A DNA stretch of 63,868 nt, counting the filler, from Blastocystis sp. subtype 4 (lineage: Eukaryota), in the NCBI RefSeq assembly GCF_000743755.1. It is 12 parts of 12 records of this genome, joined end to end, with 100 filler letters (N's around TTAATTAATTAA, not from the genome) between each part and the next. Parts side by side here need not be neighbours in the genome. Positions count along the whole stretch, not along the records: positions 39,145 to 44,022 come from NW_014569061.1; 11 more parts are not named here. One strand, given 5' to 3'. A program made the translations under genes and the position numbers. The notes under the pieces were generated by a model that did no database searches, had not been told where the DNA came from, and saw only the letters and a list, made by a program, of their open reading frames with translations. Numbering within the stretch: position 1 is the first letter of the stretch; each line of letters starts with the position of its first letter. This document shows, one piece after another, positions 5,171 through 49,942 of the stretch.

Positions 5171-5270
5171 GAAGAAATACATCAAGTTTGTACCAACTGT
5201 TGCTAATGATTATCAACTCATTCAATTCTTGAGTGATTCAAATATGAGTAAGAATCACTGGATTAATGAG

Positions 5271-5984: not shown

Positions 5985-6692
5985 CCAACTTATCAAAATC
6001 GATAATACAAAGGCGTCTTATCACGCTTTCTTCAAAACACATTTTTCATTCATTCTTTCATATTTCATTCATATTCACATTTCTATTCGAATCATACTAT
6101 CCAAACATCCTTATTCACACTTCTATCTTCTCATCTATTCTTATCTATCACCAACCTAATCATCTTAGGCTGGTTTTCATTCCCTTCTTTACTCATCCCT
6201 TTCAATGATCGATTATCACTTCATTCATTTCTTGATAGTAAACAATCAGATTCACACTACCTTGTAATAGACTCGATTGTTCTTAACTTTCCCGAGGGGA
6301 CATCTTCATCTTATCAACCTCTAATCTGTATTCTTATGGTTCTCTATCATCTAACAACTATGTTCTCTTCTCATGATTTTGGTACTCATCATCTACTCTC
6401 ATTCACACAATGTCTCTTTCAGAACGGTGTCTCATCCATATACTCGGTCACCATTAGGACGTAACTTATGAATGTGTAATGGTACCATTCTCAGGGAAGC
6501 TTCGTGTTGCCAGGGTGTATGGTTGATTTGATGAAGAAGTCACCCTACTATTCTCCAACAGGAATAGTGGTTGGATTCATGAGCTGTCAAGCAATCACTC
6601 GAGACTTGGGCCACTCGGGAACTAGTCCGAGGCCTCGCAGGTATGGACGTTAAGTGCCCTCTAGGGCATCTATGTAGCGTGTATAGTGTTTA
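5985..6692 (+). repeat. Repeat B copy 1
   Basis: Homologous to 37126-37861 and 42659-43270; ends GGACGTTAAGTGCCCTCTAGGGCATCTATGTAG...AGTGTTTA. Confidence 0.9.
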
Positions 6693-6734
6693 ACAATAAC
6701 CCTTCCTTCATTGTCAACAAATAAGTCCAGTTTA

Positions 6735-12149: not shown

Positions 12150-13231
12150 TCCATTTGTTTGTTCAAATACAAAGATGATTGATTTCTAGACCTATAAGTG
12201 ATTATCCACTAAATGTGTTGTTCTGTTGTGTGTAGAGTCGAGATCAGACAATCAACTGATGATGTGATTCATTGTATGATACCAACATAATGAATAGGGA
12301 TAATCTGTGAATCTTGAATTCTCAAGTTGAGTGATAATATGACTGTTTCTGAAGAGATTATGATGAATGATAACAGAAGATGTGGTAGTAGGAAGTGATT
12401 AGTTGAAGAGGTCATGAGACATCATATTCATAATACAAATGGAATCATTTGTTGTTTCCCACCTCATAACAGCATTTGTATAAGAGAATGAAGTACAAAA
12501 ATGATGTAATGATAATGGAATGATGGATATAGATGAGATGATGATGATAACAGGATTACAAACAATCACTAACAATGTCAAAATGCATACACTAGATGAT
12601 AGTATGTGAAGATATTGAATGGTATATGTGAGTAGAGATAATCCCTTCAAAGAATGATCTCAACACATACAACTTCCATTCATTGATCCTCCCTCAGATT
12701 GTTCAATTGTTCTATTGATATGATAACAAACAAAAAGGAGATATCATCCGAATTGGAGTTAGGAATGGTGATGAGGATGGACAAAGTGTCACAAACATCG
12801 TATTACCATCCCTTTGATCAGATTGGATGAATCCATGAGGGATCAGAATACATGAACTCAATACAAGATAGAGACAAATACAATACAATCTGGAATCAAC
12901 AAGAGTAGATTGAAGAAATCCAAGGAATGAGTGAAATGAAATGTAAGAGAAGCCATATCTGTTCTGACTTCATTGATGCATTTTGCCTTTGAATGAAGAT
13001 GAAGAACTGTATTCGATTAAGTGAATAAGTGATAAGTACTTTGATAGCAGATGGTGAATGAGATTGAGTGAATGATATAGTTGATATCATTCCAGATAAT
13101 ATCGATTTGACAATCAATAGTGTTGTAGTGAAGATCGATATCACTTCACATACTTGTGATAATCATTTCATTATTGTGTGAATCAATAGATATCTCTTTT
13201 AGTAATCATGTTTGTAACAAACTCATCATAC

Positions 13232-15491: not shown

Positions 15492-15615
15492 AGGAGTTCG
15501 TATGAGTGATTTGCGTTCGGTTCAGTTTGATGTGCGTGATCGTCATGGTGAAGTAGTATCAATCGCTTCAGACATCTACATCAACATCCGATTGAATGTG
15601 AACGGAAAGGTTTAA
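15492..15615 (+). CDS. C-terminus of Polinton/PLV-type minor capsid (penton)-like protein
   Basis: GVRMSDLRSVQFDVRDRHGEVVSIASDIYINIRLNVNGKV*; homologous to 29965-30085, 46330-46677 and 49590-49942. Confidence 0.6.
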
Positions 15616-15648
15616 TTTAATCTACGATTAAATAGCTGCTATGCAGCT
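15615..15648 (+). terminator. Double hairpin directly after the penton-like stop codon
   Basis: ATTTAATC-TAC-GATTAAAT then AGCTGC-TAT-GCAGCT; a terminator role is inferred only. Confidence 0.4.
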
Positions 15649-15689
15649 TAATGGGAAGGTTTAAGCTGTTGATTATTCACTTTGTGTGA

Positions 15690-16514
15690 GGAGTAGTTTT
15701 GGAGTAGGTTCAAAAATACAACCTACTCCACATTTCATTCAAAAAGGCTCATTAAATGGCTTATTTATAGGGATTAAATCATTTTGGAGTAGGAGGAGTA
15801 GGAAGAGTAGGTTGAAAATTCAATTTGACAAAATGTTTTGGTAGAATTCTTCTTAAGAAATAGAAAACCAACCTACTCCAACATCAAATAATCCTCATAA
15901 TCAAGCTAATTTATGGGCTATTCTAAAGGAATTTGGAGTAGGTTTGATATTTGAGACTACTCTTGAAACCTACTCCAAGTTTCTCCAACCAATATGTAAT
16001 CGATTATACTAATCCCTAATAACAAGGATATGTTGAATAGTTGCTCCGCAGTTGCTCTGCAACCATTGATCTTTGATCAATTCGTTTAATGTGTTAAACT
16101 CCAAATTCTCCACTTCACTTCATTTCTCAAAAGTCTTTAAAGATCGACACCCATGCCCATTTATCAACACCCTTAAAACATCCTGCTAAATCTATTTGTT
16201 ACCCCATAATAAGTACCGATTATATTCTTGCATATATAACTGAATACAATCATGGTACTATTGAGTCATTACTTAACAACTATCTCCCGTATTTCTATTC
16301 AGTTATATGAACACCAAAATTAGACCATATTTTGGTCACAGTTTTAGCGTTTGTTCGTCACCCTGTTTACGGCACCATCATTTGTGTCAGAAAGTTTGTT
16401 TTACTTTGTTCATACCATTTAACTGATTACTTAACCATTTTGCACACATTTATTGCGTCAGCTCAAGGAGGTGCGGCGCCGCGCCCTCCGCAGAGCATGC
16501 ACGGCCTCAGGCCT
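15690..16514 (+). mobile_element. Repeat A copy (GGAGTAGG iteron array + terminal GC hairpin)
   Basis: Many GGAGTAGG/CCTACTCC words; ends GCGTCAGCTCAAGGAGG...GGCCTCAGGCCT. Confidence 0.9.
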
Positions 16515-16657
16515 CAACTCATTTTAATGTAACATTCGTCAATTACTACTTGAATAAAAGTGTCTGGGTTAAGTAGCTGTATGATTCTTATTGTTAATGT
16601 GGCAATCAATTACTCTCACAAAACAGAAGAATAACTCAGGATACTACTTCAACACTC

Positions 16658-19600
16658 TTACTCTTGAGGATCATACTTGTTCATCAATACGTTCGCTTTC
16701 TTTATGAATAACTCGTCTCGTTCAACAAGATTTCCATATTCTAGTTCGCTGTTCTTACCACCAAATCCGCGTACTAAATTGTATTTACCTTTTCCTGTGT
16801 GTGTCATGTTTGCCATTTTGCGAGCTTCTTCTTTGGGATCTGCTTTCTTGAACAGTACTCTGCCTTTTGCCTTGCCACCTTCCCACATATCATTTGCGAA
16901 GTCTTTAACCTTTTCAACCGTTGTCTGTTTCTGTATCGTATCTTTGTGGGCTTCAATATCCATTTCCAATGCTTTTATACAGTTCTTCAATGCAATAGTA
17001 CATTTGTTCACTTCTTCCCATGGAGTCATGTTGTTTTCTGGATTCACTTTTTGATCTCTTATATCCTTTCCACCAAAATGGGATGCATATTCAAGTTGTT
17101 GAAGATCTCTGACCAGTTTTCTTGTATCATCCACGTATTCTCTCACAATGAAGTAGGCTTGAAGTGTTTTGGATACATTATCTCATGATTAGTCACTCAT
17201 GATTCCATTACCATATGAAGGAGTGTCACTCTTCCAGAAAGGTCCTCCTCCGTTCTTGGGTACTCTCAATGAAACCGAATCAAGAGCTGGAACATCTACT
17301 TTTCATATTGCCACCATATTACTACTTTTAATCCAAACAGTTCTTGGATTCTCAAAAGAACCAGACTCACTGACGGACTGAATCACTTTGAATTCTGGAA
17401 GACCTACATGTTTTAATAACCTAAATGCTACAATTCAGTAGAAGAGAACATGAATAATCCTGAGCACCATACAAGGCTTTCTCCCCCAAGTAAAGCGTAC
17501 GCAGACTGTCCAAACCTAGTTGACACTAATACTTCTTCTCCTACTGTCCAAAACCGTTTCAGTTGAATGGTAGAAGGATTCACCTCCAAGATCGATCGTC
17601 TTCAGCGATGGCAAATCTATGATCAACAGTGGATTAAATATGAACTCCTCAATATGAAGGAAGCATGATAAAAGTTGCATGATTTCTTGTGTCTGTCACC
17701 AATTGTCAGATGTTGAAGGTTATCAAGATCTTCCAGAATGAACTCTCCGTAATCACTGAAACTGAAACGACCAATTGAAATCGTATCCAACGACTTGCAT
17801 TCGGTGATGGAGAATGATTTTCCTTCATCGCCTCCTCCATTTGGAGATTCGGTAAATGAGTTATCTCCTATCTCTACAGTCTCTAATAAAGGAAGATTAG
17901 ACAATTCAAAAGATTTGACTCTCAAACAACAACCGTCTCTAATAATAACGTGTTTCAACTGGAGGTATATATTGTTCCACTTAAATGACATCAATTCAGT
18001 GCAGCTATTGTCTTCAACGTAAAGAATGGTCACCTTCTCAGTGACCTTCTTTTTCCCATCGTAAGTAACCTTTAATCCATTCTTATCAATAACATCATTA
18101 TGCTTCTTCATCGATTCCTCGATTATCTTCTCGATCTCTTTTTCCAAGGTGTCAGTTAACAATGTTTCTTTACCATCCACTAGATGAGTCGCACTTTTGC
18201 ACTTCTCTTCAAAACCCTTCATTGCTTCATATTTGATTTTGTTCAATTTGACTGCAAACTCCTCACTATCCATGCTATCATCTGAAATGATGTTATCTGC
18301 TTCCTTCTTGAAACTCTACACAACACTACTCAAATAACACAATACATNTCCTTCAATGTCAATGGTCTTCTGCAGGTGCTCTCTGTATCGAGTTTGCAGT
18401 TTATCACTGCCCTTCTTCTTCTCTTCAAACAACTTCCATGCAATATCATTGGCCTTCTTATGGATTGCTTCCAAGTCAGTATTGCCATACACCATATCTG
18501 GGCGAATTCTCTTATTCATTTCTCGTTTATACATCTACTACTTAATTGAATATCATTCACCAACCTCACAACATTCATCAACAAGCTGACTCAGCTTTGC
18601 CATATACAGATTGTCCATGATGCTATTCGTATCTGGGAAATGCTTTTGTTCCATAAACAAATGAGCTTGTTGAACTGCAAATCTACTCTTAATATCGTTT
18701 CATTCACTCACTCAACAAATGTTTTGACAGTGATTGTTTCACCTCCAATCTTTCTTGGTTCAATTCCTTTTCTCACTCCATCACCTTGAATCACTCGATC
18801 AATGTAGTAACTCAACATTTGCATAAACTGAGGTTTGATTTCAGATATGGATCCTTCATAATCCAAATTCATAACATCTTCTCCAGGAGAAGGAAAACAG
18901 AACATATCGAATTCATTAAAGCATTCCTCAATCTCTTTCACTTTGAATGCATCTTATTCAGTCTATTTATACCCAATTGAATTCCTTGCTCAATACTAGT
19001 TCTCTTACCGTAGTTTTCAAAATCACGAAGGAGAAAGTCCAGATGCTGAAATGGTTTACCATCCTTCTTAGATACTTCCTTACTAAACTTGGAAAGAACA
19101 GAGAATTTCTTCAATTGATCTGTATTCATATTGCCCTTCTGATTGAAGATTGCATATGAAGATATAAGAGAACTCAACCCGAAAATACTGCAATTGAACT
19201 CATTCTTTGTATCTAAATCCCATAATCCTTGAGTGTCCATCAACAGAATGCAGATCCTCTCTCCATTCTTTCGAGTGATAACAAAAGGCTTATTCCAAAA
19301 CAAGATTCCTCGAGTATTCCTTTCTGTTCCAGGGCTGATTGATTTGATGTTTGACTTCTTCGTTTCGACATTCTCCATTGTGTCAAAGTCTTTAATCTTA
19401 TTGCCTTCTGCTAACATCCATCGTGGAATACCATTGTCAGTTAATGTCATATCCACATGACCTTTCTCTATGGTTTACGAACCGTATTGATGTCTCACTT
19501 CTGAGTTGTTCTAAATAGAGATTCAAGAAGTACAGAAAGAAGGATTTCCCACTTCGAGAAGGACCCATAATACAAAGAACTCCCACAGGAAGGTCTTCAT

Positions 19601-19745
19601 CTACCTGTGCTTCAACTCCACATCATTCCACTACCTCTGAGAATAACCCATTCAAAGACTTGTCTTTCACTTTATACGACTCCCCCTTTTCTTCAATGAA
19701 CTAAAACTCATAGAAACAAGTCATCCTGACCTGTAAATCAGACAT
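16658..19745 (-). CDS. Atlastin/GBP-like GTPase - helical - LRR - coiled-coil fusion protein 1, multi-exon
   Basis: ATG 19745; GPSRSGKS (P-loop), TRGILFW, LLMDTQG, FLLRDF; LRR exons (LPLLETVEIGDNSF). Confidence 0.8.
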
Positions 19746-19844
19746 GAGGCAAATTAATTATGACCATTCACTGGTTCTTAATAATTTGTTAATACTTCCG
19801 CGGATATATCACTCATTCAGAATCATCCAATCATCAGTGTCAAC

Positions 19845-19870
19845 AGTAGTAGTAGATTGACACATGTTAC
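19845..19870 (+). mobile_element. Repeat C terminus (Polinton-like AGTAGTAG end) at an insertion junction
   Basis: AGTAGTAGTAGATTGACACATGTTAC matches AGTAGTAGTGTTTTGACGCATGTTAC at 43938. Confidence 0.65.
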
Positions 19871-19871
19871 A

Positions 19872-20640
19872 AGGCCTGAGGCCAAGTATGCACCTCCTTG
19901 AGCTGACGCAACAAATGTGTGCAAAATGGTTAAGTAAACAGTCAAATGGTATGAATAAAGTAAAACAAACTTTCTAATACTAATGATGGTGCAGTAAACA
20001 TCGTGACGAACAAACGCTAAAACTGTGACCAAAAATTTGGTCTAATTTTGCTGTTCATATAACTGGATAGAAACACGGGAGATGGTTGTTAAGTAATGTG
20101 TCAATAATACCGTGATTGTATTCAGTTATATACGCACGAATTTATTTGGAGTTTATTATGGGGTAACAAATTGATTTAGCAGGATTGTTTTAAGGATGTT
20201 GATGTTTAAAGACTTTTGAGAAATGAAGTAAATTGGAGAATTCGGATTATTCAACCAATGGATGATACCATTGTTATTAGGGATTAGTATAATCGATTAC
20301 ATATTGATTAGTTCATTATGAGATTAACAATAATGGAGTAGGTTTCAAGAGTAGTCTCAAATTTCAAACCTACTCCAAATTCCTTTAGAATAGCCCATAA
20401 ATGAGCTTGATTATGAGGATTATTTGTTGTTGGAGTAGGTGGAGTAGGTTGGTTATTCTATTTCTTAAGAATTCTATCAAAACTTTTTGTCTAATTGAAA
20501 TTTCAACCTACTCTTCCTACTCCTCCTACTCCAAAATGAATGAATCCTATAATCAAGCCATTTAATGAGCCTTTTTGAAGGTAATTTGGAGTAGTATTTT
20601 TGAACCTACTCCAAAACTACTCCAAAACTACTCCAACAAA
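19872..20640 (-). mobile_element. Repeat A copy, directly downstream of the primase-helicase gene
   Basis: Inverted homolog of 15690-16514; hairpin partly deleted. Confidence 0.9.
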
Positions 20641-20694
20641 TCATGATTATATAAAGCATAGCTTCCAAAGTAAAATAGAATCACATATTCATTA

Positions 20695-23600
20695 TCAAAC
20701 TTCACAATCACATACATGCAACAAGTTATAGACCACAAGATTATTACATTTTGTCGGACATTTTCTTATATACTGTGGATACTTCGATAGTTCTAACATG
20801 AATGATTTTGCACTTAGTTTATATCCATTATGATAGCTGCAACAGTAACTGTTAAACGCTTGTCCCAGACTTTTTGCAGGAATCATATATCCCTCAGTAA
20901 TGTATCTGATTGCTCTTCTTTGCTTATATTTTGACGTACAATACACATCAATCTCCGTGTCATCTTCAGATAATTGTTGAAGCCATTCTTCAACTGGATC
21001 AACAGATGCATCAATAATGTTCTGCATATATTCAGTGTCTTGGATTTCCAAGATATCTTCATCTGTGTATCTGACTTTGTTAAAGTAATTGTACAAACCA
21101 TGGCTGCTTCTTCCAAACATCGATTGTCTTAGCAAAGAAAGGCTGAGTGATGTATTGATCAGGCATGAAGTTTAAAGCACTAAATGCATTAATTCGAGCA
21201 TTACCATTAGCAACATCAAATGAAAATCCATTTGCATTGTTTGTTGTAGCAATGATTCGACTACGCATTGTGTATGTATAAGCTTGAATGTTCTTTCTGT
21301 TAGCAACCCTGTGTTTAGTACCATCAATGTAACTCTTCATCACATCAACGATATCTTTGCCAAATTCGGAAGCACGAGCTTCATTGATGTTCACAAGCAA
21401 TGTATTCTCAAATGGAACTCGATGAGCTCCAAGCAAATCATCCCTATTATTACATTCAACCACATATTCATCACCAATTATCTGACTGATCATTTTGATC
21501 AACAATCCTTTGCCTTGTCTGCATCTACTGTAGAATAGAATGCCAACAGGCAACAAATTAGCAGGATCTTGAATCATTTGAGCTACAAACTTCTTCACAT
21601 ATTCACAATATAATATATCACCAGAAATGTTGAGCATTGCCAAGATATAGATTCTCATGAATATAGGATGAAAGTTGATGTACATCTTCATCTGATCTGT
21701 TAACGCAGGAATCATGTCCATGAAATCATTGATCATAGGTACATATTCAGATAGATCAGGAACAGGATCAGTTGAACGAATATCTGGATTGTATCCTTTG
21801 AATGTGTTAAGCACTTTCTCACCAGTTGAAGGATCTCGTATCACTTCAACTGAACCACCACCAACTTTGTTGCATGGAATGAAATCTGCTCTGTTAGCAA
21901 CTCTTCTGATATTGAAATATGCATTGATAGCATCAATAGTTGGTTCTTTTGGTCCCTTGATGTCTTTGTCTTCGAAATATGATCTTGTCCCATAGATCTT
22001 ACCGATATTCTTCCATGTACCAACAATATCACTGTTTCGTTCAATATGTCCATTCACATAGCATGAATTGACAGGCGTTTGTAAGAACACAATTCGCTGT
22101 GATAGATAGCTCTTAATAATACTGATTGTCTTATTTCTATCTTTCCTATACTCATCTTCACTATCATAAGCACCAACACCTGGCTTCTTCATGTATCTCT
22201 TACAGATCTTCATTAATACCCAATCCTGAACAATCGGAAGATCTGCATCTCCACGCATGACCTCAGTATCATCATCAATTTCGTCATCACTGAAATCACA
22301 AATCGCATTCAAATCATATCTTCCATATTTCTCAGAACAGAAATCATCATAGAATGAAGGATTTGTATCTTTCACAATCTTCATCACAGTACCCATTGTA
22401 TAGATTTGATCTCGATCTGTCTTATATCCATTGTAGTATGTTTGTCTGAATGAATCAATATCATTGTTCTTAGGACGTCCAATGATTTGATTCCATTTCT
22501 CACAAACAATCTCATAACAGCCCATCCTTCATCATAATCATCTGTATCTTCAAAGTTTCTTGCAACTGCAGTGATTATAGGCAATTTGATTGTAGTATAG
22601 ATTCCTTCTGTAATAACACTGTAGTATAGATTCCTTCTGTAATAACACTATCAGGAATATGATCAAGCAGATCACGAACTTCTTTAACTGTGAACTTTTG
22701 ATGCTCTTCATTGTTTGATATTTCATCATGCTCTGTATTGTTTTTAACATCGTTAACACAGCTGTAAGCTGTGTTTAAAGATGGTTGTACTTGTTTGATA
22801 TTATCATTTGATGATGGAGGTTCAGGAAGTGTAAATCCTTCAGGAAGTTTAAAGGGTAAAATCTTGTTCTTATCAAAATCACTAAACACTGGTTGATCAG
22901 AATAATCAACATATTCATCTCTCAAAATGCAATCTGTGTATTTTGAATAATCAGCATCACCAAATTCTTTATCACCCAATTCAACGATATCAAATGATGA
23001 ACTAGTATAACTATCTTCTTCCATATCATAACATAGATACATATGACTTTCAGGCTTACAACTTCCATCTATCCAAAACACTCGTTTAGCGCCAAACATA
23101 CATTTATCAACAATTCTTTCAACATTGCCATAGAAGATCTTCTTAACTTCAATATCATTGATGATGTAGTTATATGTTGCTTCACGATGTTCATCATCTG
23201 TAAGTGCTTCAAGAATAATATGTGCTCCATGCTTATAGAGTTGCTTTGCAACATTTTGAGTGCTACTCAAATCTCCACATTGATATGGTGGTCTGATATA
23301 CAGATTGCTGTTGGTAGAGAACATTTCACACAATCGCTTATTGAATTGTTTGAATTGTTCTATTGGAACATCTTCAGATCCATTAGAATAATCCAGATCA
23401 ATACAAATCTTTCTTTTGCCTGTAAGAACAATACCAACAGCTACTGTATTTGTATATTCAATATCACAGTAATCTGCATGCCATTTGATAGCATACTGGA
23501 TAGATAGATTGTTGAAGAATTCATTCTTATCGTTTGGAACGTAAAATCCCATAGGGACTAGTTGTTTGTTGGGAGTACCATACCATACACACGAACATAG

Positions 23601-23758
23601 AATTGATGTTTATCTATTACAGTTTTTGGTTCACTCTTATAATAACATCCATTATTCCCATTTAAAAAGGAATGTAGATAATTAATTAGAGGATTTGCAA
23701 TTTGTTTTTCTTTGCTATTAGTAGGATTAATCGTTGTTCTATCAATTGTATCGCTCAT
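20695..23758 (-). pseudogene. Viral-type AEP primase - SF3 (D5-like) helicase - C-terminal winged-helix fusion, about 1000 aa, intronless, at least four frameshifts
   Basis: KICIDLDY, KHGAHII, VDKCMF..WIDGSCKP (AEP); VLNTFKGY, SRCRQGKG (Walker A), VNINEA (Walker B), IIATTNN (motif C); IPAKSLGQAFNSYC..SAKSF. Confidence 0.85.
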
Positions 23759-23859
23759 TTACTTATAGTGGAATAATCTATTAATTGATTATTTCACTTA
23801 GAATTTGATGATTTAGTTTTGATTCACAAAGTGACTGCAAATCTATGATTTGCTGGGTA

Positions 23860-24008
23860 GTTAGTGTAGTAGTTAGTATAGTAGGTTACAAAGAAGTAGG
23901 CTACTACACTTAATCCCTCATAAACAAGCTTGATTATGGGGGTATTCTTTAATTTATGAGGGTTTAACTGACTTGTTTATGAAGGTGTAGTAGGTGTAGT
24001 AGCCTGTT
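23860..24008. promoter_or_regulatory. Second iteron array (GTAGTAG type) upstream of the primase gene, cut by contig end
   Basis: GTAGTAGG/CTACTAC words around the scaffold CCTCATAAACAAGCTTGATTATGGG shared with repeat A. Confidence 0.6.
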
Positions 24009-29136: not shown

Positions 29137-29643
29137 TTCACTTGAATCCATATCTATTGGAAGCTATTCATTCTGTCATTGTCATTCAGTTCGATTTGAG
29201 AGTAATGATTGAATGAAGGAGTAATAATCAGATCTGACATGTTTTCAATCCATGTATCTTTATCAAGGAGCATTTCAAGGAGATTGGGGAGATGATCGCA
29301 AATCGAATAGCACAGCTCCTTTCAATTATCGAAACACTCTAACAATGTAGAGTGATGAATAGAAGCAAGAATGATGATTAGATCTGAATCATCTTATTTC
29401 AATGCATATTCCTTCTATTTGTTTCAGATGTATTGGATCTGTTGTTTTGGAGAGTATGACTAATGAATTGAGTTGAGAGTAGATATTCCAATTCTTTCCT
29501 CAGGTAGTATCACTGGAGGTGATAATAATCAATTTGTGAGTGTTTATGAATTGAATGCAACGAGTTTGATTAACACTTGAAGATAAGATGTAGATGCTGT
29601 TACTCTTGAATCGTTTATTCGAAGCCGAAGTTCTTATGTCTAG
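29137..29643 (+). pseudogene. 3' end of an LRR paralog close to 11640-12149, with AAG>TAG nonsense change
   Basis: Near-identical exons and introns; ACAATGTAG here versus ACAATGAAG near 11850. Confidence 0.6.
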
Positions 29644-34147: not shown

Positions 34148-34315
34148 AAAATGTCTGCCTTTTCGAGCTTGTTTATGGGCCTTTTTGTCTGCATTTTCGT
34201 GGCGTTTTTGTCTGGTAGGGTTAAGCGTGTATAGCTACCCAGGGTTAGAGGCCCATGTTTGCGACGGTTTGTCTGGATAATAAAAATACGTAACATACGT
34301 CAATTATCTACTGCT
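34148..34315 (-). mobile_element. Repeat C (Polinton-like terminal repeat), cut by contig start
   Basis: Reverse complement of 43938-44022; outer end AGCAGTAGATAATTGACGTATGTTAC. Confidence 0.7.
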
Positions 34316-34989
34316 TCTTCATCTTGTAATTGACCAGTTATTCTTGTTTATGGTTCTTCGTCCTCGGACCTTATTACGGTTTTATTGAATATTGGTCATT
34401 GCTTCTTGAATCTTGGTTCCTTTGGTTCCTTTGGTTCCTTTGGTTTCTGGATCTCGTAACCAGTTTCTTGGTATTTGGTTTGACTCTTGGTCCTTCAAAC
34501 TTGATTCTTGGCTTTCAGCTGTTATTCATTTATCTTCCTTCTTTGGCTCCTGATTTTGACTCTCGAAGTTGTTATTGACCACTAGTTCTTGATAATGGTT
34601 CTTTGTCCCCAGACCTGAGTGTTGGTTGTAGTACCTGGACCTTGGTTCCTCGTGTCGGTCCTTGATTCTTCATTCTTATGTCTTGGTTCTGGATCTCCGA
34701 CTCCTAATCATTGCTTCATGTTGTATTAATCATAAATGGTTCCTTCTTGACCTTGAGCCTTACTCATATTGACTCATTAGTTTTCATGCTGGCTCATTAT
34801 GTGGTATTGCCAAATGGTTCACGTCTTCGTCCTTCACCCTCGGACCTTAGTATCTTGGAGTCTTGGTTCGGTATATTGGATTCGCTCATAGTACTTGGTT
34901 CTTGATCCTTTGTTAGTTGGTTATGGTTTTGGGATCTTGAATCTTGGTTCTATGGGTCTCGCTCTTCGGTTCTGGTTTCCACTCATGGC

Positions 34990-35255
34990 TCATTGTTCTT
35001 GGCCCTTGAGTTTTGGTTCGTTGAGTCTTGGTCTTTGACTCTGGGTTATTGAATATTGAGTATAGGGAAAGGTTTAAACTCACTGTTCTTGGCCCTTGAG
35101 TCTTGGTTCGTTGATTTTGGTTTTTGACTCTAGGTCCTAGTATTTTGAGTAGAGGGAAATGGTGTGGCATAAACTCATGGTTCTTGACCCTTGAGTCTTG
35201 GTTCATTGGTTCTTGGTTTTGACTCTGGGTTCTCGAATTTTGAGTATAGGTTAGT
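34990..35255. repeat. Three diverged ~90-bp tandem units within a TCTTGGTT-rich tract (34330-35600)
   Basis: GTTCTTGGCCCTTGAG...TTTGACTCTGGG...TTGAGTATAGG at about 34995, 35085 and 35180. Confidence 0.8.
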
Positions 35256-35659
35256 GGTAATGGTTCATGGTTCTTTGGCGATTGGTGATGATACTGATAT
35301 TGGTATTGGTATCAGTATCGGTGTTGGATTCCTGTTATCATAGGATCGGTTCTCGATCCTCAATATGGATTTTGGGTCGTTTTGTTTATATGGATTGTTT
35401 TGGGAGTTTTATACAGGAGTTTTCTGTCTTCGGGCTTTTCTCCTATAGTTTCCTCCCTTTATCAGCAAGACTTGTTTACCGACCCTTTTGTCTTTCTCCT
35501 TGAGTTCACCTTTTTCATTCCATGGTCTCATGGAGTGTGCTTTTTGTTTTTGGTTATGTTTTTAGTTGTTTTTTGGTTTTACTTGAGGAGTTTTTGTGCG
35601 GTGAAATAACCGTCAGTTGCTTGTTGGTAGTAGACAACAGGGATTCAGGATATCTTGTG

Positions 35660-36044
35660 TAGTAGTGTTGTTTATTTCCTGAGGGACTTCATGATCTTAT
35701 CAGGCTCTGTTCTGGATTCCTTGAGTTTGCTATCATGTAAGAACTCTGTTCTCTTGTGATTGAAATGGTGTTCATCGACTATCTCAAATTAGACTATGTG
35801 GTACGGTATGGGAAGAATGTCTATTTGAGATAATGTCACCTGATGATGAGTGTTTCAAGGGTGGTAATGATACTACTCTTCTTTGGTTGGTATCTTGATT
35901 TCCTTTCAGGGAATCACCCTAATCTCTACAATCGCTGGAGATTAGTCTCAGGAAAGAGTCCGAGACCTGACGATATGGACGTAAAGTGCCCTCTAGGGCA
36001 TCTATGTAGTGTTTAAAGTGTTTAAAGTGTTTAAAGTGTTTAAA
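35660..36044 (+). repeat. Diverged repeat B copy with (GTGTTTAAA)4 tail
   Basis: GGACGTAAAGTGCCCTCTAGGGCATCTATGTAG; tail 36009-36044. Confidence 0.8.
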
Positions 36045-36117
36045 CTACTCCAGCAAATGTGATTATTGTATTAACAAGTGAATCAATTATATACCTAATC
36101 TATGATACTCAATCCAT

Positions 36118-36862
36118 TGTGATTGCGAAATTTGATAAGATATTTGTGATTCTATTTAACTATGATACTTGTGAATGCAAATCATAGATTACTAATGGAG
36201 TAGTGTTGGAGTAGGTTTGGAGTAGGTTCAAAAATACAACCTACTCCGGAATTCCTTCAAAATGGCTTATAAACTGGCTTGATTATAGGGATTAATTCAA
36301 TTTGGAGTAGGAGGAGTAGGAAGAGTAGGTTGAAGATTCAATTAGACAAAAAGTTTTGGTAGAATTCTTCTTAAGAAATAGAAAACCCAACCTACTCCAC
36401 CTACTCCAACCTACTCCAACATCATATAATCCTCATAATGAAGCTAATTTATGGGCTATTTGTAAGGAATTTGGAGTAGGTTTGAAATTTGAGACTACTC
36501 CTGAAACCTACTCCAAGCTACTCCAATCAAATTGTATCAATCATTACTGAATGCAATCACGGTATTATTGACACATTTACTTAACAACAACTGCTATGCA
36601 GCTATTTAATCTACGATTAAATCTCCCATATTTCTATTCAGCTATATGAACACCAAAATTATACCATATTTTTGTCACAGTTTTAGCGGTTGTTCGTCAC
36701 CCTGTGTTACTACACCATCTTTTAGTGTCAGAAAGTTTGTTTTACTTTGTTCATACTATTTGACTGATTACTTAACCATTTTGCACTCCTTCTTTAGCGT
36801 CAGCTCAAGGAGGTGCGGCGCTTGCGCCGCGCCCTCCGCAGAGCACGCACGGCCTCAGGCCT
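36118..36862 (+). mobile_element. Repeat A copy retaining the last codons of the primase-helicase (CDCEI*)
   Basis: TGTGATTGCGAAATTTGATAA matches the CDCEV* end at 20695; then iterons and the full hairpin. Confidence 0.9.
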
Positions 36863-37125
36863 CTTCACATACTCTATGCATCATATTCAACCGCCTTTCA
36901 TACCTAACTCTACATTCCATTCATATTCTGACAATACTGCAGGTTTCATCTCTCAGACACTCAGCTAAGCTTCAATTCTTATACTTCAATTCAAACCGCT
37001 TTCATCACTCATGCGAAATATACTATCCAATACTACAGATCTTACTCACAACTTGATCTCCACTAATACTTCGAACTTCATCCTTTCTATAATACCATTC
37101 AATTATACATCTTACTACTAATCAA

Positions 37126-37861
37126 ACCAACTTACCAAAATCGATAACTCAAATTGTACATGTCTTCTCACTTTCTTCAAAACACAGCTTTCTTTCATTC
37201 TTTCATATTTCATTCATATTCACATTTCCATTCTAATCATACTATCGATACGTCCTCACTCACACTTCTCTCTTTTCTCATCTGTTCTTATCTGTACTCT
37301 TCTATATTACCAACCTAATCATCTTAGGCTGGTTTTCAATTCTTCATTCCGTTCTTTTAGTCATCCCTTTCAATGATGGATTACCACTTCATTCACTTGT
37401 TGATAGTAGACAATCAGATTCACAGTACCTTATTCATAGACTTGATTGTTTTTAACTTTCCCGAGGAGACATCTTCATCTTATCAAGCTCTAATGTGTAT
37501 TCTTATTCTTCTCTATCATGTAAGAACTATGTTCTCTTGTGATGATTCTGGTATTCATCATCTACTCTCATTGAGACAATGTCTCTTTGAGAAGGGTGTC
37601 TCTTCGAGATACTCGGTCACCATTAGGACATAAGTTCTGAAGGTGAAATGGTACCATTCTCAGGGAAGCTTCGTGTTGCCAGGATGTATGGTTGATTTCA
37701 TGAAGAAAACACCCTACTATTCTCCAAGAGGAATAGTGGTTGGGTTCATGAGCTGTCAAGCAATCACTCGAGACTTGGACCACTTGGGAACGAGTCCGAG
37801 GCCTTAATGATATGGACGTTAAGTGCCCTCTAGGGCATCTAAGTAGTGTTTAAAGTGTTTA
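37126..37861 (+). repeat. Repeat B copy 3
   Basis: Homologous to 5985-6692. Confidence 0.9.
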
Positions 37862-38130
37862 CCCTCACTCTTTCCATCACCTAAACCTCATTTCTTTCTT
37901 ATCATATTATCCTTATTCATCATATGTCACACAATTGTTCTTCTGATTATATTCAACGAGTGAATATGTTGATAGAGCAAGATCCTGTTATTATGAAGAC
38001 TCGTTTTCTTCTCATATGGAGCATGACAATCAAGCAATATCATCACCGAGAAATGCCGAACAACATGAAATGGACTCAACAATGGTATGGCAACAAAGGC
38101 AAAAGAAATCATCCAAACAACCTAAACAAT

Positions 38131-39044
38131 CTACTCAACTAAATCCCACCTTGAATAGCCCCAAACCAACGCAAGTACAAACAACAACTTTAAGCAGATA
38201 ACCAAACAACTCTCCTTCTCCTCCTGTAGATACGCACTTCTTTGTCGAATGAATCGATCAAGACAATCAGCATCTCAAGATTATCAATCAATCAATCATA
38301 CTTGAACTATGCAATTCTCTCACTCTATTAAATCCCATGGAATACCCACGAATCCCTTCATTAGTGAGTGATGGAATGTCTAAGTTAAATTCAATCATCA
38401 ATTATCACTCTTCAATGTCACTTTGCCTATATGCCAGAAACCTCCATTGATCATTGATAGAGAAGGAAGATCTCATCAATCAATCATCACTATTCATTAT
38501 CAATTCATTTGATTCAGTAGTATTATAATCACAAGCTAATGCAATATTTCCAAGAATGATGGATTGAAGTTGATTCAGATCTCATTCATCAGTCATTCAA
38601 TTATTCATACTCTCAAATACTACAGAATGACACCAATAGAATGCCTCATCATCCAATTGAATGGATATCAGAGAAGGAAGATTCTTCAATTCAAATGATT
38701 CATACCAAAAGAATGAATTCTTCCCAATATGGATTTGTCTCAATCGGGCACAATTCATTAACAAACATTTGCTGCCTTCTCGATTATATTCATCAAGTTC
38801 AAAGCTCCTATCACCAATGACCAAACTCTCCAGTTCAGTCAATCCATCAATCACAAATCGATCTACTTCCGTAAAACAACCATCTCCAATGTCAATTCGT
38901 TTCAATGATATCAATGAATTGTTCAATATCAATGATGATATATCTGGAGGATTGAAATGATCAGCAATAATCAGAGATTCAATACAACTAGTAACAATCA
39001 ATTCACAATCATCAATCCATTTCATTCTCATATCATCATTAACA
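38131..39044 (-). CDS. BspA-like LRR family protein, 5' partial, C-terminal hydrophobic helix
   Basis: Paralogous to the LRR exons at 7400-8100. Confidence 0.75.
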
Positions 39045-39263
39045 NNNNNNNNNNNNNNNNNNNNNNNNNNNNNNNNNNNNNNNNNNNNTTAATTAATTAA
39101 NNNNNNNNNNNNNNNNNNNNNNNNNNNNNNNNNNNNNNNNNNNNAGGCAAATTAATTATGACCATTCACTGGTTCTTAATAATTTGTTAATACTTCCGCG
39201 GATATATCACTCATTCAGAATCATCCAATCATCAGTGTCAACACCATTATTTTCTTTTGCCTG

Positions 39264-42200
39264 ATGTCTGTTATTCAAGTAGAATCGATGGAGATAATGA
39301 ATAGTAGTATATCGAGAGGTCAAAGCAAGGAAAACTGATGGTAAGTGAAGATTGTCTCCGTCGGTTGTTGAGCGATGTAGTATTGTCATGATGAGTTGAT
39401 TAGAAGGATATAGCGAAATTGGATGTGGCAGTACTGGGTATTATGGGTCCATCTCGAAGTGGCAAATCACTATTTCTCAACTTTGTGAGACTGTATCTGG
39501 ACAACCTGGAGAGTATGTATTCAAGAGGGAAAGAATGTATAGAACAAGGAAGGAGTTATTCAAAACTGAGAATACCAGATGTACCAGAATGGATGACTTC
39601 TGAAGGCGACCAAATCAGCGGATTTGAGGTTAACGGAGGAACAATAGCGGTAACAAAGGGTATTCTCTTTTGGAATAAGCCATTTATCATTCGTCGCCCT
39701 AATGGAAAGAAGATGTGTTTGTTACTAATGGATACTCAGGGATTGTGGGACGACAATACTGATAACTATTTCAACTGCTGTATCTTTGGACTAAGTTGCG
39801 TGATATCATCCTATGTTATCTTCAATCAAAAGAGGAATATCAATTCAGAAGAGCTGAAGCGATTGGCCGGTCTTTCGATGTTGAGCAAGGAAATGGTATG
39901 TGATGGAAGGAAGAAGACGTTTCAGAAACTCGATATTCTGTTACGTGACTTTGAGAATCTGAGTCTCCGAAATGATACTGTAGCTACTTGTGAGATTAAG
40001 AGCAAGAAGCGATTAGATCAATTGCGAACCAAAGTTGCTGAAAGAGAGTCATTTGGACAAGTTGAGTCGTGTTTCGACAAGGTGGATGTCGTATGTTCGT
40101 TTGATCCAGGAGAAGATGTCCGAGATGTCGACTATAAAGGATTGATATCTCAGATCAGACCCAAATTCTTGCAATTGTTGAGCCAGTATATTGAACGTAT
40201 TGTGAGAGATATTGAGCCATTGAAGGTTGATGGAAGGGATTTGAAGTGTGAAGAATTTGTGAAGTGGAAGAGAGAATGGAGAATAAGATATAGGTTTGCG
40301 ACTGAAGAAGCGGATTTCTTTGGAAAGTGGAGTCATTGTCCAGATATGGATGACTCTCTGGATTCTGTTTATAAGAGTGAGATGGAGAAGTTGGTAGATG
40401 AAGCGTATACCGTTAGTATGTTCTTGATGAATGAGGAGTAGAAATACACCAATGACTTGTTCTTGATGGAAGGAGGAATATGTGCAGATTCTCTCTTCTT
40501 GGCCAATGGTAAGGTGCGAGATGAATCGATGCAAGTGGGATTGATTGGATGTGATAATGGGAAGTGTATTGTGGATGTAATGAAAGATGTCGATGTCTCC
40601 AACTTCAATCCATCGGTTCAGGTGTCATTGAGTAGTAGAGTGTCTAGTGCCAAAGAAATCGGACTGAAACATTTCCAAGAGAAGGCAAAAGGGAGTATGA
40701 ATCTGAGAAGAGAGTATGAGCGATTGTTGAAGAGTAAGATGGATGAAAAGGCAACAAATCTTCGATCAGATTGGAATCAATTTGAACAATCATGGACAAG
40801 AGTTTGGAGAGTGGGAGTGTATAGGATAAATGATCCTTAGTGGTATAGAAGAACAATGGAAGAAACAATTCAGATTCCAAATCAAGATTATGCTACATTT
40901 GAAAACAAAAACAAGAAGGCGAAAGAGCAGGCGCTAACAACAATGAAGAATGAATGCAGAGGATTGGAGTACATTTGCATCTACTATTTAGCTAAGGATA
41001 AGAAGATATGGAGAGGGCATGTAAATATAATCAATACAATGACAAAGGGGCTTGACAGACAATATGATCGATATAAAGGACTGTATGAGTCGTATGTGAA
41101 ACTCAATGGATTATCGATGGTTCTACAAGGAGATGATGAATGGAACGAGCGGAACAGATACATTACGAGTCTGAGAGTGGCTTCTGGAAGTGGAAATAAA
41201 CTATCTCAATTTGAACTTGTCAACTATGATCGGCTGAAGGAGATAATCATTGAGGACAACTGCTTTGAGAGAGTCATCAAATTCAAATTGGATCATTTGA
41301 CAAGACTGGAGAAGTTGGTTGTTGGAAAGAAATCATTCACAAGAGGAGAGTATGTGAATAAGATATACTATACCGACACGAGTTTCATCATCACGAATTG
41401 TCCATCATTGACACTCATTGATATTGGTGAATGTAGTTTTGCAGAGTTTGGTGGAGAATGGAAGTTGAGTGGATTAGAGAAACTGAAGAAGTTGAGAATA
41501 ATAAGTGAAGACCAAGAGAGTTACAACTTCAACGGTTCTCCATTTGTGATAGAGGGTGGAGTCATGTGTGTAACTGATTAATGATAGGTCTACCTAATCT
41601 GGAAGTTATCGAATTGGGATATAATGCCTTTATTTGGGCCTCTGAAATACGTTTAGAAAGTAGGATGAAAGAGAAGTTGAATAGTAGACTTGAAGAATCT
41701 TGAAAGGATTGAGTTGAATACTTGGGCACTTCAAGGTACTACAAGAGAAGAGAGAGCATGTACTTTAGCGATGATAAGTATGCAATGATAAACGAATTGA
41801 GAGTAGATTTGCCAAACTTATATACGATACGAGCGAAAGGGACATGCAACTTGACGCAACCACGAGAAGTGACCTTACGAAGTAGGTTTCAATGAAGAAT
41901 AAGACGATAGACGTTCCATTAGTGAGAACTGTGGACTTGCATAATCCATTCCAAGAGTGCAAGAGCAAAGAGATTGGTGATAATATTGAAGAAAGATAAC
42001 GAATAGGCAATGTTGGCATTGGTTTACGGTCATACTTTGTAATGAAACAATTGAAAAGTGAAATGAATGAGCTGTTGAATCTGGATGATTATGGATACGA
42101 GAGTAGTTCTGCTAGGGAAAGTATTCAGAACTGCAAAGAAGAACAAAGAAACTATGATATCACTTGTCATTCAGGATATGATGTGATGCGCAAGTTGAAG

Positions 42201-42548
42201 GGATTGCTTGAAAAGTATAAGGATGCATTGAAGACAGATTTGGACAAACAATACTCAGAGAAGAAACGAATTGATGAGAAGAAAAGAAAGACAAAGGAGA
42301 AGATAGATGGATTTGATATAGCAGGGATAGGTAGTTCTGTGGGATGTTTTATCCCAGGTCTGAATCTTATTGCCGCACCAATAGCAGTAGCCTCAGTGGT
42401 TGCCTCCAACAAAGCGAAAGAAGAGTTGAATACACTAAGAAGAAACTATGATGTATGCAATAATAGAATAAGTAGAGACGAGAAGTACTTGAGAAGAATT
42501 GATCAGATACTACAGAACTATGACTTGAGAAGTGTTTATACTGTTTAG
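39264..42548 (+). CDS. Atlastin/GBP-like GTPase - helical - LRR - coiled-coil/hydrophobic-hairpin fusion protein 2, multi-exon
   Basis: ATG 39264 with two ~30-nt introns; GPSRSGKS, TKGILFW, LLMDTQG, ILLRDF; LRR; GIGSSVGCFIPGLNLIAAPIAVASVV. Confidence 0.8.
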
Positions 42549-42658
42549 TTGATTAACAAGAATGAATGAGTGGTGTTGAGTGATGGTAAAAATAGGTGGG
42601 TAAAAGTGTCATTGGAAGTGTTAGGGGTAAGAATGAGTGTGTTTAGGGTTTAGGGTGC

Positions 42659-43270
42659 TAAACACTTTAAACACTACATAGATGCCCTAGAGGGCAATTA
42701 ACGTCCATACCTGCGTAGGCCTCGAACTAGTTCCCCAGTGGTCCAAGTCTCGAGTGATTGCTTGACAGCTCATGAATCCAACCACTATTCCTCTTGGAGA
42801 ATAGTATAGTGATTTCATGATGAAATCAACCATACGCCCTGGTAACACGAAGCTTCCCTGAGAATGGTACCATTTCACCTTCAGAACTTACGTCCTAATG
42901 GTGACCGAGTATCTCGATGAGACACCCTTCTCAAGAGACATTGTCTCAATGAGAGTAGATGAATACCAAAATCAACACAAGAGAACATAGTTCTAACATG
43001 ATAGAAAAGAATAAGAATACACATTAGAGCTTGAGTAGATCAAGATGTCTCCTCGGGAAAGTTAAGAACAATCGAGTCTATCAACAAGGTACTGTGAATC
43101 TCATTGTCTTCTATCAACAAGTGAATGAAATGGTAATCCATCATTGAAATGGATGACTAAATAAACGGAATGAAAAAGTGAAAAAACCAACCTAAGATGA
43201 TTAGGTTGGTAATATAGCAGATTGTAGAGAAGAGTATAGATGAGGATAGATGAGGATAGATGAGAAGAGG
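42659..43270 (-). repeat. Repeat B copy 4, abutting (TTTAGGG)2
   Basis: Reverse complement of 37270-37861. Confidence 0.9.
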
Positions 43271-43394
43271 AAAAGATATAGGAGGCATTGATTTGAATCT
43301 CCTATAGTAGATGAATGTATTTTGTTGGGTATAAGGGTATATAAAGAGTACATAAAGAGATACAGGATAAGGAGACGAATGAAGTTATGCAGGG

Positions 43395-43937
43395 AGGCCT
43401 GAGGCCGTGCGTACTCTGCGGAGGGCGCGGCGCAAGCGCCGCACCTCCTTGAGCTGACGCAATAAATGTGTACAAAATGGTTAAGTAAACAGTCAAAATG
43501 GTGTGAACAAAGTAAACATACTTTCTGACACTAAAAAGATGATGCAGTAAACAGGGTGACGAACAAACGCAAAAAATGTGTGACCAATAATATGGATTAT
43601 CTTTGATGTTCATATAACTGAATAGAATAACGGATATAAGGGTTTAGTATAATCGAAACCATATTGATAGGGAGTAGCTTGGAGTAGGTTTCAGGAGTAG
43701 TCTCAAATATCAAACCTACTCCAAATTCCTTACAAATAGCCCATAAATTAGATTCATTATGAGGATTATTTGATGTTGGAGTAGGTGGAGTAGGTGGAGT
43801 AGGTTAGATTTTCTATTTCTTAACAAGAATTCTATCAAAAACTTTTGTCTAATTGAATTTTCAACCTACTCTTCCTACTCCTCCTACTCCAAAATGAATT
43901 AATCCCTATAAATAAGCCATTTTATGAGCCATTTATG
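43395..43937 (-). mobile_element. Repeat A copy, truncated by repeat C
   Basis: Full hairpin 43395-43460 plus iterons. Confidence 0.9.
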
Positions 43938-44022
43938 AGTAGTAGTGTTTTGACGCATGTTACGTATTTTTTTCATCCAGACAAACCGTCGCAAACATGG
44001 GCCTCCAACCCTGGGTAGCTAT
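43938..44022 (+). mobile_element. Repeat C (Polinton-like AGTAGTAGT terminus), cut by contig end
   Basis: AGTAGTAGTGTTTTGACGCATGTTACGTATT...CCAGACAAACCGTCGCAAACATGGGCC. Confidence 0.7.
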
Positions 44023-46329: not shown

Positions 46330-46677
46330 GCTAGAAATGATTCGTGGAAGAGATGTTTGGTTCATATATGACATTTACAGAAGACAGATATGCACATCAT
46401 CAGGAATTGGTTATAATCTAGTGTTTCAACAAGCTCCTTATTTATGTCCAATATTGATACTTGATGAGATTCAATCAAATGATGTGAACCAAATAGAACC
46501 AGTAGATCTATCAAATGGATTGAACTGTATCAGAATCTATCGTAACCTGATTCGATAGATGATTCCATTTGAAACAAGTCTATTAGTGGATTGTATGATC
46601 TACTCAACAACGGGATTGAACAATGTGTGGTCGTTTAGTTATTTGAATATAGGTGCAGTTCGTATGAGTGATTTACT
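46330..46677 (+). pseudogene. Penton-like gene fragment
   Basis: LVFQQAP...EPVDLSNGLNCIRIYRNLIR*MIPFETSLLVDCMIYST...VRMSDL. Confidence 0.6.
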
Positions 46678-48436: not shown

Positions 48437-49489
48437 ATGGAAAGAGTAGTATTGAACAATGGAATAGCCATTCCAGCATTGGGACTGGGGTATTAACTTG
48501 GTTGTGCTTGTGATTTTCAGAACATATCTTTCTAAAGAGAATTCGTGTGCTTTGGCTGTGGAAACAGCTATTAAGGACGGATATCGTCTAATTGATACTG
48601 CTGTATCGTACTGTAATCATAAAGAGATTGGAAGCGCTATTCAGAAGTGTATTCAAGAAGGGGTCGTTAAGAGAAATGATTTGTTCATTTGTACAAAGTT
48701 ATGGTTATGTGATTGGCATAAGGAAGATGTTCCAATTATTGTGGATAGAATATTGAATGAGTTGCAAACGGATTCTATTGATCTACTTCTGATTCATCAT
48801 AGTGTATTGTTCAATCTCCCTCCTGAAGAATATGAGAAGCGAAAGAAAGGCCTTCCTTGTATGAAGATTCCAGATGATGATCCGAAATATCGTCTTGGTT
48901 ACAACATTGAGAATTTGAAGGAGTTGTGGGGTGCTATGGAAGGTGTCTGTAGAGAGGTGAGGATCATTGGGTTGGAGTGATGATTAGGGTAAGGTTCGTT
49001 CGATTGGAGTATCGAACTTCTCGGGCAAGCGAATTCGTGATTTGATGGAGTTTGCTACAATCAAGCCTGTAGTGAATCAGGTTGAATTGCATCCATATTT
49101 ACAACAATGGGAAGTGAAGGAAGTATGTGATAGATTTGGAATCTACTTGATGGCTTATTATCCTCTTGGGGGTCAGCAGGGTACTCGATGCCTTGATTCT
49201 TACAATCTTCTGGAAGATCCCACCATAGTGAATATTGCAAAGACTCACTCCAAGACATGTGCTCAAGTGTTGATTCGATGGGCCATTCAACGAGGAACGA
49301 TTTGTATACCCAAATCTGTTACTCCAAGTCGAATTGCTGAGAATATGGCTGTGTTTGATTTCTCATTAAGTGATGATGAAATGACAGCTATTCGAGGCAT
49401 TGATAAAAGGACTCGCTTTGTGCGAATTGGTGTATTCTTACCGAGTCCACAGACATGGAAAGATTTGTGGGATGGAGAATATGTAGATT
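48437..49489 (+). CDS. Aldo-keto reductase; stop probably completed by poly(A)
   Basis: LNNGIAIPALGLG, GYRLIDTA, TKLW, NQVELHPY, IPKSVTPSRIAEN. Confidence 0.93.
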
Positions 49490-49589
49490 GGAGTGTTTGT
49501 TCTATTGATAGCAATGTGGGCCTCAGTTGAGAATGAGTCTGTACATATTCTAATATCAGGACGCACACATGATTATCGGCAACAACAGT

Positions 49590-49942
49590 AAATGTTTGAA
49601 GCGATTGATACTACTTCATCATGACGATCACGCACATCAAACTGAAACGAACACAAATCACTCATACGAACTCCTGGCATGTTCAAATGACTAAACAAAC
49701 ATTGTTCAATCCCATTGTTGAGTAGATCATACAATCCACTAATGGACTTGTTTCAAATGATATCATCTGCTTTACCAGATTACTGTAGATTCGAATCCAG
49801 TTCAATCCATTTGATAGATCTACTGGTTCTCTTCCTTTCACACCACTTGCCTGAATCTCATCAAATCCCAATATTCGACTCAAATCAGGTGCTTGTTGAA
49901 ATACTAGATCATAAGCAGGACCAGAAGGATGTGGATATCCAT
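49590..49942 (-). pseudogene. Penton-like gene fragment (best preserved)
   Basis: APDLSRILGFDEIQASGVKGREPVDLSNGLNWIRIYSNLV...VRMSDLCSFQFDVRDRHDEVV. Confidence 0.65.

Follow-up and report, generated by a model that had tools for sequence, protein, structure and literature searches.

The last 85 bp of one short contig (positions 43938–44022; repeat C) lie inside an iteron array of a second repeat (repeat A). This arrangement raises two questions: what kind of element has its end here, and does repeat A belong to that element or to another one? The window, by which we mean the whole stretch of 63,868 bases that was analyzed, consists of 12 short contigs (c1–c12, 3.2–8.5 kb) joined by linkers of the form N44-TTAATTAATTAA-N44. 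Its long unbroken ORFs, among them those for CDC20, HSP70, Aquarius, an OCRL-like phosphatase, and GBP, show that the source is an intron-poor eukaryote. The best matches to its CDC20 are at 92%, 81%, and 74%, and those from named organisms at about 55%; a parabasalid source is no more than a guess. Public sequencing runs with c7 sequence are mostly labeled as mouse or rat gut metagenomes. Three contigs are relevant to repeats C and A:

c4, positions 15492–24008
c7, positions 34148–39044
c8, positions 39145–44022

The motif AGTAGTAG..TTGACRYATGTTAC is present at 19845(+), 34315(-), and 43938(+), where the sequences, read directly, are AGTAGTAGTAGATTGACACATGTTAC, AGCAGTAGATAATTGACGTATGTTAC, and AGTAGTAGTGTTTTGACGCATGTTAC, respectively. 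The initial annotation had described these three ends and had noted that two of them run into contig breaks; both statements hold, the copy at 43938 reaching the contig end at 44022 and the copy at 34315 reaching the contig start at 34148. A fourth, weaker copy at 16554(-) had been missed; its core match (16529–16542(-)) adjoins AGTAGTA at 16554. With at most one mismatch allowed, the core TTGACRYATGTTAC has four matches in the window versus 0.11 expected, and none of 100 shuffles reaches four. The copies at 43938 and 34315 have 73 bp in common at 94.5% identity, up to the contig end, and the common part of the C-like copies at 19845 and 16554, both in c4, is limited to the first 22–26 bp. The two longer copies are as follows:

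43938–44022, + strand, C-type Maverick terminus, first 85 bp (5′-AGTAGTAGTG...), ending at the contig end and lying inside an A iteron array
34148–34315, - strand, C-type terminus, first 168 bp, variant AGCAGTAGATAA..., running to the contig start and containing four CAGACA(A/T) words

Logan contigs of other copies, which have loose ends at 34303, read AACACTACTACT there, equal to the major tip form, AGTAGTAGTGTT. Summed Logan contig depth, which is not copy number, amounted to 429, 50, 305, and 9.3 over positions 34148–34311 in four public runs, versus 1.8, 0.02, 0.25, and 0 in the next bin; depth over the C copy in c7 thus fits a multicopy repeat. At the C tip, no single-strand fold was found beyond that of shuffles (z = 0.14).

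Scanning metagenome contigs with a 27-mer of C yielded 20 loci; the same 27-mer had no matches in the viral contig collection, and the genome contig scan gave none either. The tip is visible in 19 of the 20 loci, oriented alike, the remaining locus (L007) beginning 33 bases inside the tip. The window copy at 43938–44022 is 100% identical to the termini of L003, L011, L012, and L014, and the copy at 34148–34315 is 92–97% identical to 15 loci over 156–168 bp. At every metagenome locus with a flank, homology ends at AGTAGTAG or a variant of it, and there are 12 distinct outside flanks among the 19 (one of them adapter-like). The terminus is therefore placed where the initial annotation had put it, at AGTAGT: homology stops at AGTAGTAG, and the 12 flanks differ. 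AGTAGTAG itself forms the boundary in 15 of the 20 loci and in two window copies, with variants elsewhere, and a TGA..ATG.TAC block at positions 13–26 is invariant over nine tip variants. Past the tip, about 230–245 bp are common before the interiors diverge, as seen in the alignment of the interior types that we call class I and class II; the class II loci (L007 and L012) share only about 209–245 bp with class I, at 95%.

The flanks of the C copies are protist genes and repeats (L003 is flanked by an ABC transporter ORF, c8 and L010 by A arrays), which means that these copies are integrated. Target-site duplication (TSD) pairs were sought by reverse complement among 14 insertion flanks, and no pair was seen by eye. 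Two side observations concern the flanks. In L012, positions 1–44 are an adapter-like sequence ending five bases before the AGTAGTAG tip, which we take to be a library adapter and perhaps only a chimeric contig end. A tandem family with units of about 610–730 bp, present in the window at 6548–8137 and 38217–39044, adjoins many C insertions; it occurs in the flanks of L001, L003, L008, L009, L015, L016, and L019 and also within the element of L016.

Class I interiors are highly uniform. Over 10,066 bp, L003, L006, and L008, each with a flank of its own, are 99.5–99.6% identical, and L004 and L009 agree as far as they reach; near-identity at three sites (99.5% over 10 kb) points to recent spread. 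In three copies, a protein-primed PolB (pPolB) gene lies 1.6 kb inside the terminus (1602-aa ORF, L003 4024–8832). By eye, this ORF contains DANNLYG, KLLANSIYGKF, and QDTDS (polymerase motifs A, B, and C), as well as the exonuclease/polymerase motifs VYADFE, HNGMRYD, YELYNLLD, and KPKMY. Among its homologues (E 1e-60), some carry PF03175 (P0014, P0033, P0045, and P0112) and others bear the name DNA-directed DNA polymerase; the 90% cluster to which the ORF belongs counts 1031 members. Pfam gave no polymerase match on the ORF itself, and a viral contig scan with the polymerase gave three pattern matches, none of which was confirmed. For 8 of the 17 top polymerase relatives, the longest contigs measure 20.4–23.5 kb. 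Class I also has an rve integrase gene (L003 9985–11004(-); PF00665, E 5.8e-11, 43 bits versus a cut-off of 32.6). A 387-aa ORF of L003 (11308–12471) had no Pfam or PDB match, and phmmer searches of the PDB with the polymerase, the 387-aa ORF, and the putative ATPase described below returned nothing meaningful.

Class II loci carry ORFs of 1019 and 227 aa that resemble each other. An AF2 model of the 227-aa ORF, built from four sequences, is of low confidence (pLDDT 50.7), and its fold matches are therefore weak; those in BFVD include “Putative penton capsid protein [MELD virus sp.]” (E 2e-7) and a mavirus minor capsid protein (E 8e-4). A 445-aa ORF (L007 4716–6053) reached a language-model score of 0.98 to Pox_A32 clusters in 24 of 30 matches, a lead only, and shows, by eye, a Walker A motif (APSKSGKS) and a Walker B motif (IYIFDD). 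This ORF probably encodes an A32-like packaging ATPase. A 139-aa ORF (L007 6048–6467(-)) is protease-like by eye (GHYVS...NNCGY, His...Cys), and Pfam matched neither this ORF nor the putative ATPase.

An 827-aa ORF at L007 7547–10030(-) is conserved in the element family, with 40 representatives at E<=0.001. It was considered as a major capsid protein and rejected, since AF2 folds it into a mostly helical model (pLDDT 62, pTM 0.37) and 17 members show no consistent Pfam family. A language-model search with this ORF gave a best score of 0.76 and no lead. A double-jelly-roll major capsid protein was not found in 20 kb of interior, the estimated 3-kb centre of the element lying outside, and DUF4106 had no Pfam match in these 20 kb. 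At least 10 kb are available behind each kind of end, and the contig of L007, which starts inside C, measures 22,984 bp; the records to which L003 and L008 belong measure 23,995 and 24,736 bp. A third interior, class III (L016), is related to class II but degraded, and c3 and c6 contain pieces of it. Positions 29137–29643 match, at 93%, the same region of L016 as the following piece:

10313–12150, - strand, degraded Maverick interior piece, class III, 95.4% over 1841 bp to L016

Repeat C marks the outer end of a virus-like element of Polinton/Maverick type. Its assignment to the Maverick/Polinton family follows from the sharp AGTAGTAG boundary, the 12 flanks, the shared segment, and two complementary gene sets. 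This assignment agrees with the initial annotation; C leads either into pPolB and an rve integrase or into penton-like, ATPase, and protease-like genes. The family has a pPolB, an rve integrase, a probable packaging ATPase, and a 5′-AG tip with a short reiteration, all features of Mavericks/Polintons, and the class I and class II genes together make up the usual Maverick/Polinton core, the major capsid protein excepted. None of the 20 metagenome loci holds two inverted C ends in one contig, each having one terminus; because no contig carries both ends, we infer pairing of C as terminal inverted repeats (TIRs) from gene complementarity and contig sizes. As the gene sets of classes I and II are complementary and contigs of 20.4–23.5 kb and 22,984 bp occur, C is read as the TIR of a 21–23 kb element, of which classes I and II would be the two ends. 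We hold it to be probable that C is the TIR of a Maverick of ~21–23 kb with an rve integrase and that the same 26-bp tip caps an unrelated arm, repeat A, itself most likely a TIR, belonging to a smaller element.

Two other origins of C are conceivable. The repeat could terminate a DNA transposon or LTR-like element that bears an integrase but is not a Maverick, given that rve integrases occur also in Ginger/Tdd transposons and LTR elements (PMC2836005), or it could be the end of a free, nonintegrated linear virus, as relatives have been deposited as metagenomic “MELD virus sp.” We consider such origins very improbable: the pPolB gene 1.6 kb inside the terminus in three copies speaks against a non-Maverick element, and flanks made of protist genes and repeats (the ABC transporter ORF, A arrays) show integration, which a free virus would lack. 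One could also attribute the common motif to chance or to the concatenation of contigs, since the window is an artificial chain, two contigs of which start with exact 99-bp overlaps. Yet none of the 100 shuffles reaches four matches, and the terminus recurs in metagenome contigs (19 independent ones) and in the Logan contigs from four runs, leaving this explanation a negligible probability. The overlaps match a part of c4 and the class I Maverick interior, respectively:

39145–39243, + strand, 99 bp identical to 19747–19845 in c4, continuing as ACCATTATTTTC (ACCATT...) instead of AGTAGTAG
5171–5269, + strand, 99-bp overlap with the class I Maverick interior (positions 777–875), 100% to L004 and 99% to L003, L006, and L008

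These overlaps look like de Bruijn graph overlaps left where the assembler broke at repeat branch points, and the C/A repeat structure accounts for the breaks of the draft assembly at these points.

Repeat A is ordered from a GGCCTGAGGCC end with a G+C-rich hairpin through about 400 bp (A1) to three GGAGTAGG/CCTACTCC palindromes. The copies, the modules at their outer ends, and the genes directly inside them are as follows:

19873–20712, + strand, A-type arm c4R: GGCCTGAGGCC end with the hairpin partly deleted, A1, and three GGAGTAGG/CCTACTCC iteron palindromes
15690–16515, - strand, A-type arm c4L, 80% identical to c4R and inverted
36118–36870, - strand, A copy c7, complete through the iterons and adjoining repeat B
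43397–43934, + strand, A copy c8, truncated by the C-type insertion, with a degenerate C26-like module and adjoining repeat B
19845–19870, + strand, C-like terminal module, 26 bp, outer end of arm c4R, four substitutions from the major C terminus
16533–16554, - strand, C-like terminal module, 22 bp (AGTAGTAATTGACGAATGTTAC), outer end of arm c4L
15492–15614, + strand, 3′ end of a penton-like gene (38 codons of 227 aa), directly inside arm c4L, matching L010 ORF 557–1240(-)
20695–23609, - strand, D5-like helicase region (DUF5906), three ORFs of 344, 482, and 158 aa, directly inside arm c4R

At 43934/43938, the C tip replaces the last ~60–70 bp of the A array that are kept in c4R, c4L, c7, and L010. 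The central iteron palindrome of the c8 copy (43760–43900) folds with z = -5.8. The interruption of an A iteron array by C, already noted in the initial annotation, has a second case at a different A position: in L010, a C-type tip lies in the central A palindrome, in the opposite relative orientation to the insertion in c8. C-type elements have thus landed in A iteron arrays at least twice, independently. A proposed role of A as an internal module of the virus did not hold for the part of the Maverick covered here, because A is absent from 2 x 10 kb of its interior.

The junction at 19871 bears on what A is. An A hairpin end does lie near the 26 bp, as had been noted, but the accompanying idea that A was inserted into the virus there is the weaker reading, since the C26-like module stands outside GGCCTGAGGCC in five of five aligned A copies. 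The GGCCTGAGGCC end follows the 26-bp module after two bases at 19871–19873 and the c4L module after 15 bases at 16515–16532. The module is intact in c4R and c4L (AGTAGTA..TTGAC..ATGTTAC) and degenerate in c2, c7, and c8 (e.g., GATTGAAAATGTTCAT, GGTTGAATATGATGCAT, and GACGAATG), where it then runs into repeat B. The 15 bases past the c4L module are unlike the sequence that follows in C (by eye, about 3 of 15 agree), and the remainder of C (GTATTTTT..CCAGACAAACC) was not found behind either c4 arm within the contig. The presence of the module in all five copies and the failure of the c4L bases to continue C suggest that the 26 bp are the terminus of A itself and not what is left of a C-type TIR. 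The junction of c4R with its flank (19840–19881) is at single-copy contig depth at 85% likeness, and A is many-copy in summed depth. This single-copy value, which counts only forms close to that of c4R, does not support the notion that every A-type arm starts with the c4R form of the 26 bp.

A competing account holds that the 26 bp in c4 are stumps of C-type TIRs into which a separate element A, with GGCCTGAGGCC as its own end, inserted 28 and 37 bp from the tip. The neighbors of A at GGCCTGAGGCC do vary (C26 twice, B in two contexts), and insertions of this kind occur, repeat B sitting in a C terminus after position 88 in L005. For such a history, however, two Maverick tips 3.3 kb apart would each have had to be hit, independently, within 40 bp of the end, and no C remainder is seen behind either c4 arm within the contig. 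Moreover, the 15 bases between ATGTTAC and GGCC in c4L mismatch the continuation of C, and the B-A copies in c2, c7, and c8 retain a degenerate TTGA..ATG.. module and spacer at the same place, so that the module is A's. We regard insertion of A into Maverick TIRs as unlikely. With moderate confidence, we instead read A as a terminal arm, ~0.8 kb long, that belongs to another, smaller virus-like element; this element and the Maverick would have nothing but the 26-bp tip in common. Counting against A as an arm, three of the five A copies adjoin repeat B instead of a host flank, and the helicase family is small (nine homologues).

The interiors behind A bear on this reading of A as an arm. Past the iterons, a penton-like gene follows in c4L and L010, and in c4R the helicase region comes after a stretch of about 60 bp that c7 also has. 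Two interior classes behind one repeat are what a TIR with unlike inner sides would show, and the A-type element may carry both a penton-like gene and a D5-like helicase. The penton-like ORF is intact in L010 (557–1240(-), 227 aa), where it is 30% identical to the class II 227-aa ORF (E 2e-27), and the helicase region has an intact 633-aa homologue (P0121, 99% identity), one of the nine. A comparable geometry was seen in c9, where an aldo/keto reductase gene (48468–49530) lies between outward-facing, 81% identical fragments (46387–46674 and 49655–49939) of the penton-like gene region seen behind A in L010; it matches that of c4, in which a GBP-like gene (16658–19474) lies between two outward-facing A-type ends.

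The 99 bp at 39145–39243 show the place of the c4R insertion without the insertion, or else a graph branch there. In run X7, one contig of 3049 nt has its end exactly at 19845, and together with the start of c8, this indicates that the c4R insertion is polymorphic or that the assembly graph branches there, in either case exactly at the tip. GBP-family paralogues at 39404–40441(+) and 18938–19474(-) appear head to head across the c4/c8 branch point, with the A-type element within their shared upstream region in one form only.

Repeat B was observed at 42657(+), 37862(-), and 6693(-), and in L005 from about 668 onward, with a different outside flank each time. It starts with TAAACACT(T/A)TAAACACTAC.TAGATGCCCTAGAGGGCA and adjoins the degenerate A tip in c2, c7, and c8. 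Its position after position 88 of the C terminus in L005 indicates that B inserted into a Maverick TIR there.

How the tip might work can be outlined by analogy. TIRs of protein-primed PolB replicons are described in PMC4046053 as origins, with terminal proteins encoded upstream of, or fused to, PolB. By the logic of such replicons, the C tip may be a replication origin, and its AGT-AGT-AG reiteration would support jump-back after priming. The priming complex, the integrase, or both may bind the invariant TGA..ATG.TAC block at positions 13–26. In the polymerase, an N-terminal extension of ~560 aa is predicted to be, perhaps, a fused terminal protein, and the rve integrase would insert a double-stranded copy with a short TSD. 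Adenovirus, which uses jump-back priming, has the terminal trinucleotide reiteration CAT CAT C, versus AGT AGT AG in C, each followed by a conserved core about 10–26 nt from the tip, and the parallel is a functional analogy only. The conserved 26-bp tip, common with a second element, is a candidate origin or integrase site. A bolder proposal, which we put forward tentatively and hold to be rather doubtful, is that this tip (the AGT reiteration plus TTGACRYATGTTAC) is a portable module of two otherwise unrelated elements in one host, that the A element is a satellite using the priming or integration proteins of the Maverick, and that the Maverick prefers A arrays.

Exact termini, a terminal segment of ~240 bp, and a gene layout are now given for a recently active Maverick family, whose host is a gut protist met in rodent-gut and other metagenomes. 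The C family is another Maverick/Polinton, a kind already known and ordinary for such genomes: these elements are well known in parabasalid genomes, and close class II relatives have been deposited as “MELD virus sp.” Less ordinary are two features that rest on few copies: one tip occurs on two different arms, and the Maverick has landed more than once in A arrays. Kapitonov and Jurka (2006) reportedly described Polintons with a 5′-AG terminus and a short terminal reiteration. Polintons measure 13–25 kb, with TIRs of 100–1500 bp and TSDs of 5–8 bp, according to bioRxiv 10.1101/2023.08.22.554363.

Among known systems, the parabasalid Mavericks of Trichomonas vaginalis and Tritrichomonas foetus resemble the C family in having very many copies in an intron-poor gut or mucosal protist and in carrying pPolB, rve integrase, and packaging ATPase genes; the protease and penton genes of these Mavericks have candidate counterparts in the C family. 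In the genomes of T. vaginalis and T. foetus, Mavericks/Polintons fill about a third of the sequence, as reported in PMC10120064. The C family differs from these Mavericks in that no DUF4106-type major capsid gene is seen in 20 kb of its interior, and the G+C content of the window is 35–40%, versus the 29.5% given for T. musculus in PMC11978803, a difference that disfavors T. musculus as the host. The A arm has its closest parallel in Polinton-like viruses and endogenous viral elements (EVEs) with a primase-helicase, as it likewise adjoins a penton-like gene on one side and a DUF5906 helicase on the other; protist EVEs are reported to carry either pPolB or a primase-helicase (PMC10120064). Unlike in such EVEs, no major capsid protein (MCP), ATPase, or integrase is seen in about 4 kb plus 0.2 kb behind the two A arms.

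Relatives are also filed as MELD viruses, metagenomic midsize eukaryotic linear dsDNA viruses, a term used in the title of PMC8502044. One protein of MELD virus sp. is 65% identical to the 227-aa ORF, another matches the 827-aa ORF (E 3e-27), and the 1019-aa ORF has a parallel in a “putative penton capsid protein” of 996 aa. The MELD records are filed as free viral genomes, whereas C copies are integrated at many sites between host flanks; because the relatives are filed in this way, integrated and possibly virion forms of these elements can be compared.
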